Shown: piece by piece, positions 30,399 to 45,790 of the stretch
Position numbering within the stretch: the first letter of the stretch is position 1
How the letters are laid out: each line of letters opens with the position of its first letter
Assembly: GCA_036172245.1 (NCBI GenBank)
Contig: JAYWIR010000166.1
Coordinates: 1-49,517 of the forward strand
DNA length: 49,517 nucleotides
From: Raillietiella orientalis
Taxonomy: Eukaryota
Direction of reading: 5' to 3'
The notes under the pieces: generated by a model
Databases searched by the model: none
What the model saw: the letters and a program-made list of their open reading frames with translations, nothing else
Told to the model about the DNA's origin: nothing
Position numbers and translations under genes: made by a program

Positions 30399-30785
30399 AT
30401 GACTTCACAAGCTCCACATCTGACACATGATCAACTGAACACGATCCTCAAAGGAATCCACAAACTGTACAAGTGGGTGAGGACGTCACGATATCACGCC
30501 ATATTCAACAGCCAGGAATATTGGAATTTCATCAGCACAGCAGAGCAGTATAACCGCATTCAAACAATACCATATCTAAATAAAAAATTGGAAAGGAAAC
30601 TTCGCTACCAAGGAATATACAGAATCACAGATCTTCACAGAGCAATCAAAGATAGCAGATATCTACCCTATTTCTTTATGATGACCCTGACCACCAGCAG
30701 GGAAAATATCCGACGGGGCAATTGGGACCATATGAAGTATCTCGTATTACTCATGTACTGCTGGATATTATTATCAGCAGCATAA
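30399..30785 (+). CDS. 128-aa protein, divergent BAF-like (barrier-to-autointegration factor / HhH-type) family, paralog 1
   Basis: Intact ORF from ATG 30399. Homologous to 34559-34939 (NSQEYWNFISTA..IQTIPYL.KKL.RKLR.QGI.RITDL). Ungapped by-eye match to BAF [11 protein letters not shown]...[10 protein letters not shown] and to the terminal W-containing helix. Confidence 0.7.
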   Translation: MTSQAPHLTHDQLNTILKGIHKLYKWVRTSRYHAIFNSQEYWNFISTAEQYNRIQTIPYLNKKLERKLRYQGIYRITDLHRAIKDSRYLPYFFMMTLTTSRENIRRGNWDHMKYLVLLMYCWILLSAA

Positions 30786-30894
30786 ACACCGAAAACAATG
30801 AATTATTCGATGATTAAAAAAAAAATTATTATTCATTATTAAAAAGAAAACAACAAATCACAAACTGGTGACCTTAAAAAACACTGAATTGAAC

Positions 30895-31023
30895 CGAATT
30901 AGACTGGGATAGGTTATCATAGGATGAGTTACGTAGGTTAGGCTCGGTTAGGTTCCGTAGAACGTAGGTTAGGTAAGGACAGGTGTGGCTAAGTTAGGTT
31001 CGCTTAGGTTGCGTTGGATAGGT
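30895..31023 (+). repeat. Degenerate (TTAGG)n pentamer tract
   Basis: GTAGGTTAGGCTCGGTTAGGTTCCG...GTAGGTTAGGTAAGG... with 5-nt periodicity. Confidence 0.8.
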
Positions 31024-41587: not shown

Positions 41588-41870
41588 CACAAAGGAAATA
41601 AAAAAAGAACCAAGTAAGAAAAGCTAAATAGGGACCTTACATTTAAAAAAAAAAGGGAACAAAAATCGTGGTTATCTAAGATCTATATATCAATTCTCAG
41701 TAAACATCTTAATGGACCTTCCATCACATATTTCGTGTGAAAGCAGAAATCAGCAGAACATTGATCCCAAATGGAAATGCAGCTCCTCTCGTTATGTTCC
41801 AAACTTGCTAGCACAAAAAATTTAATCGAATTATGAACACAACACTTTTCGCTAAATACGAAAAAAAAAA

Positions 41871-44800
41871 AGTTGCAGCAGATCGATTCGCGCGTACACA
41901 GAATGCCTATGCCTACGCGAAGGTGCCTATTCGTTGATGCGGATTCTGGACCTCGCAGTTCTACGAAAAGCGCTGTTCAGCCGGGAATCAGCCCGTTGCT
42001 TCGTCTCCTAGGAAAGTTTAAACACCAAAAAAAGAAGAGGAGGAGGAGAACTTTAAAGGTGTTCCAAAAAAAAGTTCGTTCGAGCCAGGCCAACCAGTCA
42101 TGAAAGAAGGGTACAAAGGCCAACTCTTCGTATTGTACTCAGTCCGACCATGCTTCTGCTGCACCAAAGACTGTTGACGCAACGCTAAGGTATTTGAATT
42201 AGCTACCCGAGAGGTTCCCAGTTCAATGCAGTGGAACAACCGCTCTCACGGCAAACCCTCCAAGATGACCACGCTGTTGCTGCTGTTCATACTCTGGAGG
42301 GATGTTGAAATCTCCTGTTCACTTATAAGGTGCATGCAGGCCAGCTTCCACCAAATATTCGCTAATCGGAACTTCTAAGAAGCATGTCCTCCCACCGCGC
42401 ATGTCGGGATGGTTTAGTGAGAATATGTTTGCCAATACGAGATGGATTTATTTGGTTTACTTGGTTGCAAACTCTTCCACTGAACCCTAGTCGTCGAAAT
42501 CAACGACTGGTTTCTTGCCTTACATGATTGGCTGCAGTGAGAAGGAAATGCACAAATGAGCTAAGGGACGACTCTGATGCTATTTGTTCATAGGGATCGA
42601 TCCATTTTACTGGAATTCTTTCGCAGAGCAGCAGGTTCAATAAGCAAAAGGAGGCAACTGTGCTCCGACTGTTGTCGCCGTCAATGAGTCCGTCGAAATC
42701 CCATAACCCAGATATATTTGACAAAATTATTCGGGCGCAAGGATTACCGCGTGAATGTAAATGCTGCTGCTTTTAGTTTAGCTAGCATTTACGCACTAGA
42801 ATATCAGTGAGCAATCCAGCAGATTCTCGGAGATCACAATAGGGTTAAAGTATTATTTTCGGGCTTCAAAGAGTAGCTCATTTTTTCTTCTACAAAAGGA
42901 CTTGAGTGATAACATCAATGCTCATTTCTTTCCCCCTGTAGAAATCTAAACATAAAGAAAGGTTTGGTTGTGGTGGCCATTTTGCTTATTCCATGAGATT
43001 CCTTTCGTTCTAAGTGCTATCTTTGTTCTAGATTTGCGCTAGAAATTTTGTGCAGCGATCTTTCTGAACAGAGAAACATGATGTGTATTGTCAATCTGCA
43101 GCCATCACAAATAATTTCACCGTCTTATCATTTGTCAGAGTTCATTGCAATGGCTTCGTAATCTAGGGTTACCCAAGAAGCAAGTTGGTCATTGGAGTTG
43201 CCCTATTTGGATAGGATGACAACGCTAAATCTCATCCTGTAGCGTAGAACGCTATCAGGGCCAGAGACTGAAGATTTTCAAGCATTTGGGCAACATGTTG
43301 GTCCTGGTGTAGTACCCGGAGACCGTCTTAGAATTTTTGAGCAGCTGGAGATGCACCTACATGTCCATCCACGGTCGTATGCCTTGCAGGTGCACCAGCA
43401 GCCATCGGTATAACCATTCTGACGCGGGAGCCAAGTAGCAGCTCGAACATTGGTCAAGAACCAGGTAGAGTAGCGTAAACATTCAACATTGCGGATCAGT
43501 AAGACGCTGTTCCTGTTGGAGGAATGAACGTCAACCTTCTATTTGCAAACACTCGTATCAAGTTCGAGAGTGGAGGAACAAATGATAAAAACGAATTCGG
43601 CACTTGGAATGGCGGAACGTCCGTCTATACTGTGCACAATGGTCGAGTGGGAATTTGTGCACCCGAACTCGAGTTGAGGTACGTAAGGGATTCCAGCGCG
43701 TCGAACAGGGGATTCCTATGAAACATGTGGAATACTTGGGATTACTGACCAGGTTATTTGCATTTCTGCGTTCGTGATTATGAAACGTGCCATATATTTG
43801 GAATATAGATTTTGGGGAAAGAAACGTTTGCGGTGTCGTGGTGCGTTCAGAGATACGGTAATGCGACAGCCTGAGATCTGTGCAGTTTAGTATCCACTTT
43901 AAACTGGTAAAGAGGGAGCGTATATAAATTCCGTCGTTCGTGCTGCTAGTTTGACAAGGTTATATAAGTTGATATCTCGAGATATTTATTGTTACTAATT
44001 TAGAAATAAAATTAAATGAAGTCTATGAAACTTTTTTGGAAAGAACACGTGGTTCTAACTGTCTTCTAACACTTGTTTTTGCAGACTGGTCAGTCGGTGT
44101 TGTCCTGGTAGCTGGATCAAGGGTTAAGAGAACCGAAAGTAATCTTACAGTAAAAAAGAAGGAGTAGGAGCCAATATTCTCTAAGGAAGGAAAGAAACAG
44201 AGCACTGAATGCTTCGATAAATACTCTATATCGAGTTTTGAATAGGAATGAGTAGAGATCTGAAAGTTTGCATTTGTTGACATATGCAAGCCTTCACCAT
44301 GAATACGGCTGCCGGAGAATGGCGAATCTTATGCTATGTCGTATGCACCATGCTGCTAACCAATGCAGGTTTGCAAGTATCCATTAGAGGATTGCTAAAC
44401 TGGAAGCTGGCTGCAAAACGAGTGGCATTAGGAGGAAAAGGAAGTTGTCATTTGGGTTGCAAAAGCGAATGCTGAAACAAGACGACAGTTAGCTGCACAT
44501 TAGTAGAGAGCGAAAAATTAAATTAGCATCTGAAAGCGGTTTCTCTTATTCACGGAGTATGTTGAACTAAAAATCAAACATCCTAATGTCACAGGTGTGA
44601 ACATGCTCTTTAATGAAGACCCCAATGCAGCGTCAGCAACGCTGTCTCCCATCAATCCAAGAGATGGATGAAACAACACAAATGTTCTAGGAGGATATTC
44701 ACAGCCTCCGAAGGAATGTGGAAAATCTTTATAGAGTGCAAGTTCGAAGAGGGCAATTCAAAGGAAGTTGTGTTCTCAACTATCACCTTCTGAACTACAT

Positions 44801-45790
44801 TTTGCAATCGTTACGGAAACACTATTAAATAAGTAACCTTAAAAAAAAGGCATCAGAAATCAAAAAAACCGATGGCATTTACAGCAGCGGACGGGTTCAA
44901 AACTGTTGCATAGCAACAATAATTTCGAACACATAGCATCATAAGTATAAAAAAAATTTCCAAGATTTAGTTTCCCGGTTCACTCCAACTACTAAACGTC
45001 ATAAAGAAAATTCCAGCCATACCCCTCAAAAAAGGTATTCCACTAAATATAAGGATAATAGGAACCTAGACATTAAGAAATTCTAAGATCTCCAAACATG
45101 GCAATACGATTTAGAGAGCTGTCAATTGCTGAACAGCAAGATATAGAGCATCAGAGAGAAAAAACGTACCTAATGATTTATAGGACACCATTATACGAAA
45201 GGTATAACAGCAACGGATATTGGAATTACGTCATCACAGCACAGAGGAATGACGATGTAGATAACATACCATTTCTACAAGAGGATTTAAAACATAGACT
45301 CCGACAGCTTGGAATTTCGAGAATCAGTGACCTGTATTGCATTATCAGAAGATATTCCTACAGACCGAGACTGTCTACAAACATGCTTAGCTACCTACTG
45401 AGAGATGAGAGACCCACAACCAAAATGCAAGTGCTCTTTCTCGTATTCACATTCTACAACTGGTTTAGAAACACGTAAAATAAAGGAAATAAAAAAAGAA
45501 CCAAGTAAGAAAAGCTTAATAGTGACCTAACATTGAAAAAAGAAAAGGGAATTAAAATCGTACTTATGTAAGGTTCATATATCAGTTCTTAGTATACATC
45601 TCAAACGAGCTACAATCACAGATTTCGTTTGAAAGCAGGAATCAGCAGAACATTGATCCCATATAGAAATGCAGCTCCTCTCGGGATCTTGCAAACTTGC
45701 TAACAGGAAAAATTTTATCTAATAATAAAAACAACACTTTCCGGTAAATACAAAGACTTCATACAGGTGAAGATTAATATGTTATGTTAT
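41871..45790 (+). repeat. Segmental duplication unit (Tx1 fossils + BAF-like gene); paralogous to 37974-41860 and 32190-35240
   Basis: 41871-42730 matches 37974-38830. 42865-45515 is almost identical to 32325-34976 (offset 10540). Confidence 0.92.
45098..45478 (+). CDS. 126-aa BAF-like protein, paralog 4 (identical to paralog 2)
   Basis: Same translation as 34559-34939. Confidence 0.8.
   Translation: MAIRFRELSIAEQQDIEHQREKTYLMIYRTPLYERYNSNGYWNYVITAQRNDDVDNIPFLQEDLKHRLRQLGISRISDLYCIIRRYSYRPRLSTNMLSYLLRDERPTTKMQVLFLVFTFYNWFRNT

Follow-up and report, generated by a model that had tools for sequence, protein, structure and literature searches.

The window, by which we mean the whole 49,517-nt stretch of DNA analysed here, contains four intronless open reading frames of 126-128 aa that run from ATG to stop codon on the plus strand, each at exactly the position where the original prediction had placed it: ORF1 at 30399-30785 (128 aa, pI 9.95), ORF2 at 34559-34939 (126 aa), ORF3 at 41207-41587 (126 aa) and ORF4 at 45098-45478 (126 aa). 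A tblastn search of the window revealed no further copy. The same prediction described the four as highly divergent paralogs. Their homology is borne out by BLASTP, in which ORF1 aligns without gaps to ORF2 and ORF3 over residues 36-122/123 (E 1e-13 and 6e-17), but the proposed divergence holds only for ORF1, which is 26% identical to ORF2: ORF3 is 77% identical to ORF2, and ORF4 matches it nucleotide for nucleotide, leaving three distinct sequences among the four ORFs. All three distinct proteins are basic (pI 9.5-10) and have a mass of ~15.6 kDa each. An AATAAA motif at 34940-34945 follows directly after the ORF2 stop codon. The 3' region is A-rich.

The ORFs are embedded in larger plus-strand repeat units. 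ORF2 lies near the 3' end of the 3.1-kb unit X2 (32182-35260), ORF3 is carried by X3 (38824-41862), which is 89% identical to X2, and ORF4 is carried by X4 (42726-45816). X4 is 100% identical to X2 over ~32381-34974 (X2 coordinates), a 2.6-kb tract that spans ORF2/ORF4, and the flanks are 80-87% identical; ORF4 is the product of a recent conversion or duplication tract shared with ORF2. ORF1 belongs to an older unit, X', whose upstream part occupies 28485-30398 on the plus strand. Two of its segments (28485-29177 and 30021-30398) show homology to X2 positions 33489-34177 and 34194-34558, with 58-59% identity, and are split by ~0.8 kb containing a plus-strand RT-like fragment (29230-29623). Two other repeats occur between the units. 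Repeat Y is present in two plus-strand copies that are 88.5% identical (30965-32173 and 35387-36598), the first of which starts within a TTAGG tract and runs up to the start of X2. Repeat Z is present in two minus-strand copies (37966-38823 and 41863-42725), and together with X it makes up a tandem duplicate of 3.9 kb; the 3' end of X3 is ~60 nt short and is joined directly to Z, without a TTAGG tract.

As had been claimed for three of the genes, TTAGG tracts follow ORF1 (30938-31008), ORF2 (35261-35453, with an internal 80-bp duplication) and ORF4 (45817-45856); all three are degenerate and on the plus strand. Two clean plus-strand (TTAGG)n arrays, 47352-47404 and 47663-47848, enclose a (GGCCA)n array and define which way the whole region faces the telomere. 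Every TTAGG cluster lies on the plus strand, as do the four ORFs, which point toward (TTAGG)n, and the region contains no CCTAA cluster. The X units are arranged head to tail, with 89-97% identity and TTAGG tracts at three junctions. This combination of head-to-tail units, internal telomere-repeat tracts and an adjoining terminal-type array is a subtelomeric pattern.

The original prediction placed a minus-strand Tx1 3' fossil before each of the four genes, which the analysis did not confirm. Within-window tblastx located minus-strand RT-adjacent fragments ~2.85 kb upstream of only two of the genes, ORF3 (37958-38361) and ORF4 (41864-42259); the one preceding ORF1 is in plus orientation, and the 2.4 kb upstream of ORF2 yielded no significant retrotransposon match. 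The minus-strand fragment in Z copy 1 resembles the RT-adjacent stretch 9288-9693 in the plus-strand non-LTR element. RT and endonuclease domains were found in the window only at 1-12 kb. In Pfam, no RT or endonuclease family (RVT, Exo_endo_phos) matched any ORF scanned from 28.4-49.5 kb; the scan covered 117 ORFs with a minimum length of 55 aa, out of 155 listed for this interval, and the four ORFs described above were scanned separately. A gag-like fragment is present at 46049-46770, between two TTAGG tracts.

Several measures favour reading the four ORFs as real genes. Between ORF1 and ORF2, in-frame nucleotide identity is 50.4%, with zero indels over 123 codons, whereas their homologous flanks contain 9 internal gaps in 378 nt (59.4% identity) and 13 in 693 nt (57.9%). 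The flank homology is real, since it scores 91.1 and 81.1 bits versus at most 26.8 bits in 20 shuffles, and the pooled rate of 22 internal gaps per 1071 nt predicts ~7-8 indels between ORF1 and ORF2 where none was found. All three distinct ORFs lack stops in the coding frame, versus 4-11 in each of the other two frames, and dN/dS of the core codons 36-88 is 0.43 and 0.39. X2 has three ORFs of at least 100 aa, and only the one described here is open in X3 (134 aa versus 61 and 56). In a simulation, the ORF outlasted 49 neutral substitutions in 3.5% of 5000 trials. These observations, together with the confident, compact fold predicted for one of the two modelled targets (see below), make it highly unlikely that the ORFs are non-functional, be it as decaying remnants or as chance open frames in AT-rich subtelomeric repeats. 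What speaks for non-functional ORFs is that whole-length dN/dS against ORF1 is 0.93-0.99, that nucleotide conservation of the ORF is no higher than that of its flanks, that our searches turned up no homologs, and that chance ORFs of 130-170 aa occur elsewhere in the same region. ORF2 and ORF3 add to this with a dN/dS of 0.61 and no third-position excess (differences by codon position, 19/15/15), and the sign of selection between these close paralogs is weak.

We compared AlphaFold models of ORF2 and ORF1 with known structures, as the original prediction had proposed for its reading of the proteins as BAF-like. The best ORF2 model has a pLDDT of 82.6 and a pTM of 0.74, and consists of an N-terminal helix (residues 10-28) followed by a BAF-like domain (residues 34-126); the remaining four of five models have pLDDT values of 50-63. 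When this model was searched against the PDB with Foldseek, BAF chains made up six of the ten best-ranked matches, with a best probability of 0.96 and a target-normalised TM of 0.71. Re-ranking by VIA-align gave BAF a Z of 9.0-9.2 (rmsd 2.4-2.5 A over 86-87 of 86-88 residues) and the next match 5.8, and a Foldseek-independent search of 48,161 chains returned BAF as the sole chain with Z of at least 8 (Z 9.1, 87/88 residues; next 6.2), values that should be read with the caveat that a common helix arrangement alone can bring helical models to Z 8-13. The ORF1 model is poor (pLDDT 58), and structural matches of such a low-confidence model carry no meaning: BAF was absent from its 50 best matches in the wide search (top Z 6.0, an unrelated helical domain) and from the 26 Foldseek matches listed. 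The fold assignment is limited in that it rests on a single confident model. At the fold level, a BAF-like domain in the modelled ORF2 structure is supported, BAF being the best and only strong match and covering the whole length of the domain; at the level of sequence, homology to BAF could not be shown, and structure-based identity to BAF is 12%.

Sequence searches established no link to BAF. None of the three distinct proteins matched the BAF family PF02961 in Pfam (hmmscan, E<=10), and BAF was not retrieved at E<=10 among 177,635 PDB sequences, either by the family profile or by each single C-terminal domain. The gapless alignment to BAF given in the original prediction is undetectable by every sequence method, and none of the methods applied found credible relatives. 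A lone profile-search match among 1.84 billion representatives (E 1e-4, a repetitive 247-aa ORF) was judged spurious. Two structural details of that prediction did stand: a helical N-terminal extension of 33-36 residues precedes the BAF-like domain, and the canonical glycine hairpin is replaced, the position reading IP-F/Y-L-x in all three paralogs with both hairpin glycines substituted. Since both glycines are absent, canonical HhH-type DNA contact may be lost. By phmmer, ORF3 residues 53-80 align with the HhH of Dbh polymerase (residues 180-207) at a non-significant E of 1.2, placing IP-FLH opposite IP-GIG with a conserved downstream G-I. Ten residues that are invariant across the family (I57, P58, L60, L64, L68, R69, G72, I73, D78 and L79) fall within this stretch. 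Apart from the hairpin glycines, the HhH sequence template is kept.

An alternative is that the protein is real but not derived from BAF, and that AlphaFold happened to render some other small HhH or SAM-like helical domain closest to BAF; the targets of such a protein may be other proteins or RNA. Every lower-ranked structural match of the ORF2 model is an HhH or SAM-type domain, with Z 4-6 over ~60 residues, including RadA / RAD51-paralog N-terminal domains, the Y-family polymerase thumb, SAM domains and the RNA polymerase alpha C-terminal domain. The sole sequence-level hint is to the polymerase HhH of Dbh rather than to BAF, identity to BAF is low, and the ORF1 model, at its pLDDT of 58, gave no BAF match. 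Generic HhH domains such as the polymerase thumb and the RadA/RAD51 N-terminal domain do share the hairpin and following-helix template, but their glycine-x-glycine hairpin is missing in this family. BAF stands ~3 Z units above all other chains and covers 87/88 residues rather than ~60, and the earlier sequence-only reading arrived at BAF independently. We regard a non-BAF domain as improbable.

An alternative that concerns the mode of spread, and that we hold to be rather unlikely, is that the gene is cargo of a non-autonomous telomere-targeted retroelement, in which a ~4.25-kb Y+X transcript, carrying the BAF-fold ORF close to its 3' end, would be inserted into TTAGG in trans by a SART-like LINE. 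The Bombyx non-LTR elements SART1 and TRAS1 offer the precedent: as PMC7265360 describes, they reside within (TTAGG)n in fixed orientation, the sense-strand 3' end of SART lies next to TTAGG as in the X units, and the SART1 3' junction was amplified with a (CCTAA)6 reverse primer. According to the same source, SART1 proteins are able to insert foreign mRNA bearing the SART1 3'UTR into telomeric repeats (PMC7265360). At our locus, all four ORFs face the TTAGG side, three units abut TTAGG tracts with their 3' ends, and the Y+X2 interval 31009-35260 has such tracts on both sides. The intronless genes, the AATAAA at the stop codon, the A-rich 3' region, the neighbouring 28 kb filled by non-LTR elements with endonuclease and RT domains, and the gag-like fragment enclosed by TTAGG tracts fit as well. 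However, a poly(A) tail is absent at every unit-to-TTAGG junction, and RT, endonuclease and gag domains were not found in X or Y among the ORFs scanned. The TTAGG-Y junction is identical in both Y copies, indicating that it was copied as a block rather than formed by separate insertions. Z-X is a plain tandem duplication whose copies have no TTAGG tract between them, and the 100%-identical tract inside diverged flanks points to recombination, not retrotransposition.

Our leading explanation, held with somewhat less than even confidence, is a lineage-restricted, fast-evolving family of intronless BAF-fold genes (three members in four copies) residing in telomere-associated repeats of an organism with arthropod-type (TTAGG)n telomeres. 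The X units would multiply and be homogenised via unequal recombination and gene conversion among subtelomeric repeats, making this a host-type gene family rather than an autonomous transposon. The predicted protein would comprise a helical N-terminal extension of ~33 residues and a ~93-residue BAF-fold domain containing the HhH. It may serve as a BAF-like, sequence-independent binder or bridger of dsDNA in chromatin or, like mammalian BAF-L, as a weak DNA binder that forms heterodimers with canonical BAF to modulate it. What the analysis shows is the ORFs with their coding constraint, the layout of the repeats and the predicted fold; descent from BAF, binding to DNA or BAF, and any role at telomeres or transposons are inferred. 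Defence against self-integration, transposon cargo and a germline factor, as put forward in the original prediction, are candidate functions. A bolder proposal, to which we assign quite a low probability, is that the telomere-associated arrays of this arthropod-type genome encode their own BAF-fold chromatin protein, which would coat or bridge subtelomeric DNA or neutralise host BAF and thereby govern both recombination and the insertion of retrotransposons at chromosome ends. Under this proposal, a self-encoded factor would evolve quickly because it is caught up in a conflict among the host, the telomere array and LINEs that target telomeres, and it would resemble the yeast Y' helicase or Drosophila HeT-A Gag in its logic.

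Animals normally have one BAF gene, and it is highly conserved, whereas this family is multi-copy, fast-evolving and subtelomeric. The BAF homodimer bridges dsDNA and binds LEM-domain proteins, properties that the family may share. Residues 34-126 of the ORF2 model superpose on BAF/BANF1 (PF02961; PDB 1CI4, 6GHD, 7Z21, 9J8M) with Z 9.1-9.2 and an rmsd of 2.4 A over 87/88 residues, and both BAF and the predicted domain are small, all-helical and built around a helix-hairpin-helix. The family differs from BAF in lacking detectable sequence similarity, in reading IP-F/Y-L in place of the hairpin glycines, and in its length of 126-128 aa, extension included, versus 86-88 residues for BAF chains in the PDB and ~89 aa for BAF as a stand-alone protein. 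The diverged mammalian BAF-type paralog BAF-L/BANF2 exists as one copy, lacks an N-terminal extension and lies outside subtelomeres. According to PMC13443024, BAF is a homodimer with the BANF1 HhH at residues 20-35, and BAF-L, which heterodimerises with BAF, binds DNA more weakly and is tissue-restricted. BAF-L therefore offers a plausible picture of how a BAF-fold protein that has lost its hairpin glycines might work, although BAF-L, at 53% similarity, is still recognisably BAF by sequence (PMC13443024).

We found no BAF-like gene in subtelomeric repeats or transposons in the literature searched, although one may nevertheless have been published. If our reading is true, a multi-copy, fast-diverging family that combines a BAF fold with an extra N-terminal helix and lacks the hairpin glycines would add a new branch to the fold and, given its position beside a field of non-LTR retrotransposons, would provide a concrete candidate protein for subtelomere or transposon chromatin in TTAGG-telomere species. 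The arrangement of the locus has a counterpart in the yeast Y' elements, multi-kb subtelomeric units that form short head-to-tail arrays with internal telomere-repeat tracts. Like the X units, the Y' elements are kept alike by recombination and each has an ORF of its own, whereas Y', from a different kingdom, encodes a helicase and not a BAF-fold protein.

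The four small intronless ORFs lie exactly where the original prediction had placed them, all on the plus strand: ORF1 (30399-30785, 128 aa), ORF2 (34559-34939, 126 aa), ORF3 (41207-41587, 126 aa) and ORF4 (45098-45478, 126 aa). A tblastn search with the three distinct proteins as queries recovered these four copies only in the window. The set does not consist of four divergent paralogs, as had been supposed: ORF2 and ORF4 are nucleotide-identical, and relative to ORF2, ORF3 is 77% and ORF1 26% identical. ORF1 is a clear homolog, aligning without gaps over residues 36-122/123 (BLASTP E values of 1e-13 and 6e-17). 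All three distinct proteins are basic, with a pI of 9.5-10.0. We rejected a reading of the ORFs as exons belonging to a larger gene, since an in-frame stop precedes the ORF2 ATG by 7 codons and the start codon is aligned across all paralogs.

Telomere-associated repeats make up the right third of the window. The arthropod-type telomere pentamer TTAGG was counted 86 times versus 17 for CCTAA; its clusters (30938-31008, 35261-35453, 45817-45856, 47352-47404 and 47663-47848) occur on the plus strand only, and no CCTAA cluster was found. As the 3' end of the G-rich telomere strand faces the chromosome terminus, that terminus lies to the right and all four genes are transcribed toward it. Each gene lies toward the 3' end of its own copy of a 3.1-kb repeat, unit X; the copies carrying ORF1 to ORF4 are designated X', X2, X3 and X4. 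Identity to X2 (32182-35286) is 97.3% for X4 and 89% for X3. Two further repeats are interleaved with these units: Z, which together with X forms a 3.9-kb tandem duplicate (37966-41863 versus 41863-45754, 89.9% identity), and the 1.2-kb Y, which comes after the TTAGG tracts of ORF1 and of ORF2 (88.5% identity). ORF3 lacks such a tract owing to the truncation of X3, which is fused directly to Z. X2 and X4 share a 2.6-kb tract of 100% identity (about 32381-34974 versus 42925-45513) with immediate flanks of 80-87%, and the identity of X2 to X3 is a mosaic of 81-98%, which points to recent gene conversion between subtelomeric units. The 600 bp directly 5' of the ORF are 97-98% identical between X2 (33775-34375) and X3 (40423-41023), compared with 86-88% in the ORF itself; this upstream region was either converted more recently than the coding part or is more constrained.

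One rival explanation is that these are dead ORFs. All three distinct ORFs contain zero stops in the reading frame, versus 4-11 in each of the other two frames. Homology between X' and X2 extends well past the ORF (30021-30654 versus 34194-34815, 91.1 bits), with a second homologous segment at 28485-29177 versus 33489-34177 (81.1 bits); the maximum in 20 block-shuffled control runs was 26.8 bits. In the non-coding flanks, identity is 59.4% over one stretch of 378 nt, which has 9 internal gaps, and 57.9% over another of 693 nt, which has 13. In frame, ORF1 and ORF2 are only 50.4% identical yet show zero indels across 123 codons, where the gap rate of the flanks predicts about 7-8. For codons 36-88, dN/dS is 0.43 between ORF1 and ORF2 and 0.39 between ORF1 and ORF3. 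Stop-to-stop ORFs reaching 100 aa number three in X2, and the gene ORF alone is still open in X3, at 134 aa, the other two being reduced to 61 and 56; under 49 simulated neutral substitutions the gene ORF survived in 3.5% of 5000 simulations. Strong constraint, however, is argued against by the ORF2 versus ORF3 differences, which fall 19/15/15 by codon position with a dN/dS of 0.61, and by whole-length dN/dS values of 0.93-0.99 against ORF1. We read the ORFs as real but fast-evolving coding sequence, and consider it very likely that they are coding.

The product probably folds like barrier-to-autointegration factor (BAF, or BANF1), as judged from predicted structure. An AlphaFold2 model of ORF2, built from a three-sequence alignment, is all-helical with a pLDDT of 82.6 and a pTM of 0.74; pLDDT was 50-63 in the four remaining models. 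In a Foldseek search of the PDB with the ORF2 model, BAF chains occupied 6 of the 10 first rows and the rest were Y-family polymerases. The top BAF chain had an E value of 0.73, a probability of 0.96, a target-normalised TM of 0.71 and an rmsd of 2.8 Å across 86 columns. Re-ranking of 96 Foldseek chains with VIA-align gave four BAF entries at Z 9.0-9.2 and rmsd 2.4-2.5 Å, with 86-87 of 86-88 BAF residues aligned onto model residues 34-126; the runner-up after BAF, RadA, reached Z 5.8. A Foldseek-independent search of 48,161 chains returned a sole chain with Z of at least 8, BAF 9j8m_K (Z 9.1, rmsd 2.4 Å, 87 of 88 residues), and second place scored 6.2.

The ORF1-target model is poor (pLDDT 58, pTM 0.44) and may count against the BAF fold: BAF was found neither among 50 rows of the wide search, where its best Z was 6.0, nor among 26 Foldseek rows. 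Its helix boundaries closely match those of ORF2. The assignment of a BAF-like fold thus combines one confident model, that of ORF2, with the independent proposal of BAF in the original prediction. The protein could instead be a non-BAF helix-hairpin-helix (HhH) or SAM-like protein, since the lower structural matches to the ORF2 model are HhH or SAM-type domains, with about 60 residues aligned; in SCOP these belong to the fold class of BAF.

Sequence searches did not connect the family to BAF. The three proteins had no match to the Pfam BAF family (PF02961) even at E<=10, and BAF was absent among PDB sequence matches when the family profile and single C-terminal domains were used as queries. 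A word-indexed protein homology search started from ORF2 scored 2 candidates, neither of which was retained. Across 1.84 billion representatives, the family profile matched one sequence (E 1e-4), an internally repetitive 247-aa ORF that we judged spurious, reflecting chance similarity to a short repeated peptide. The ESM Atlas returned phage GIY-YIG and HTH clusters with a top score of 0.77, too low to count as a lead; for ORF3 residues 34-126 it offered no named match of use. Foldseek against the BFVD viral structures yielded nothing usable (best E 0.92, TM 0.35-0.41). Related loci were confirmed for 0 of 350 pattern stretches matched in metagenome contigs and 0 of 190 in viral contigs, and Rfam placed no RNA family across the window.

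Residues invariant across the three paralogs concentrate at positions 37-79. By phmmer, ORF3 residues 53-80 align with residues 180-207 of Dbh polymerase, its HhH, at a non-significant E of 1.2, sharing the template D-x-D-x-I-P before the hairpin and L-x-x-x-G-I-x-K-h-x-D after it. In this alignment the G-I-G hairpin of Dbh pairs with F-L-H of ORF3, and all three paralogs carry IP-F/Y-L there, which confirms the replacement of the glycine hairpin noted in the original prediction. The review PMC13443024 describes BANF1 as a homodimer that binds dsDNA non-specifically through its HhH (residues 20-35) and is bound by LEM proteins at the dimer interface, and its paralog BAF-L as a heterodimer partner of BANF1 with weaker DNA binding. 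In contrast to BAF, the present family fails sequence-based membership tests, has neither the glycine hairpin nor the stand-alone format of 89 aa, and shows the fold in one of two models; we therefore stop short of assigning it to the BAF family. We class it as a BAF-fold variant, possibly working like BAF or BAF-L. A literature search on BAF listed no paper on a BAF-like gene in subtelomeric repeats or transposons.

We propose that the ORFs belong to a lineage-specific, host-type gene family residing in telomere-associated repeats. The window directly shows the repeat architecture and the conversion tract; the family would have spread and been homogenised through recombination between units. 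The small basic product, with its predicted BAF-like fold, might bind or bridge dsDNA in a sequence-independent way. Alternatively, since neither hairpin glycine is left, it might resemble BAF-L in binding DNA weakly and pairing with canonical BAF. Taken as a whole, from host family to action on dsDNA or BAF, this proposal is tentative, at slightly under an even chance. Its main rival holds that the genes are cargo of a SART-like, trans-mobilised retroelement. Their orientation fits such an origin, and PMC7265360 reports that SART1 can insert foreign mRNAs bearing the SART1 3'UTR into telomeric repeats. Against it, a poly(A) tail is absent at every junction, and the junctions are copied as blocks. 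Between a host family and transposon cargo, we lean slightly toward the former.

Pfam scans of stop-to-stop ORFs located endonuclease domains at 7240-8595 (plus) and 715-1323 (minus) and reverse transcriptase (RT) domains at 8941-9315 (plus) and 11030-11551 (minus); a homology search with the endonuclease ORF gave a single, unnamed match. From 28.4 to 49.5 kb, none of the 117 scanned ORFs of at least 55 aa contained either domain. Within-window tblastx revealed minus-strand RT-adjacent fragments in Z (37958-38361 and 41864-42259), a plus-strand RT-like fragment at 29230-29623, and, with a TTAGG tract on either side, a gag-like fragment at 46049-46770. The putative minus-strand Tx1 fossil predicted upstream of all four genes is not confirmed by these positions and strands, as minus-strand RT-adjacent fragments were seen only in Z. 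The possibility that X carries a decayed pol gene was rejected, having no Pfam or within-window tblastx support.

Non-LTR retrotransposon copies fill 1-28000 in both orientations at a GC content of 51-60%, compared with 38-45% in the gene-bearing repeat region; their gag-like ORFs at 5482-6885 (plus) and 17348-18760 (minus) are 87% identical. The fragment at 45857-47350 (1.5 kb) has TTAGG tracts on both sides and contains a gag-like ORF with a CCHC-type motif; its 46049-46770 portion resembles 5728-6453 of the plus-strand non-LTR element. The fragment is a 5' part of an element, the pol region being absent. Within the TTAGG tract of ORF2, an 80-bp degenerate-TTAGG stretch (35265-35432) is tandemly duplicated at 100% identity (2.1 copies). 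Directly between the clean (TTAGG)n arrays at 47352-47404 and 47663-47848 lies a pentamer array, (GGCCA)n / (CCAGG)n, of about 52 copies (47405-47665). The unit differs from TTAGG at two positions; the array could represent either a variant repeat of telomere type or a microsatellite that arose within the telomeric tract. The sequence that follows immediately on the final TTAGG repeat (47849-49517) is new, GC-rich and free of Pfam domains, and presumably represents another insertion into the telomeric array.
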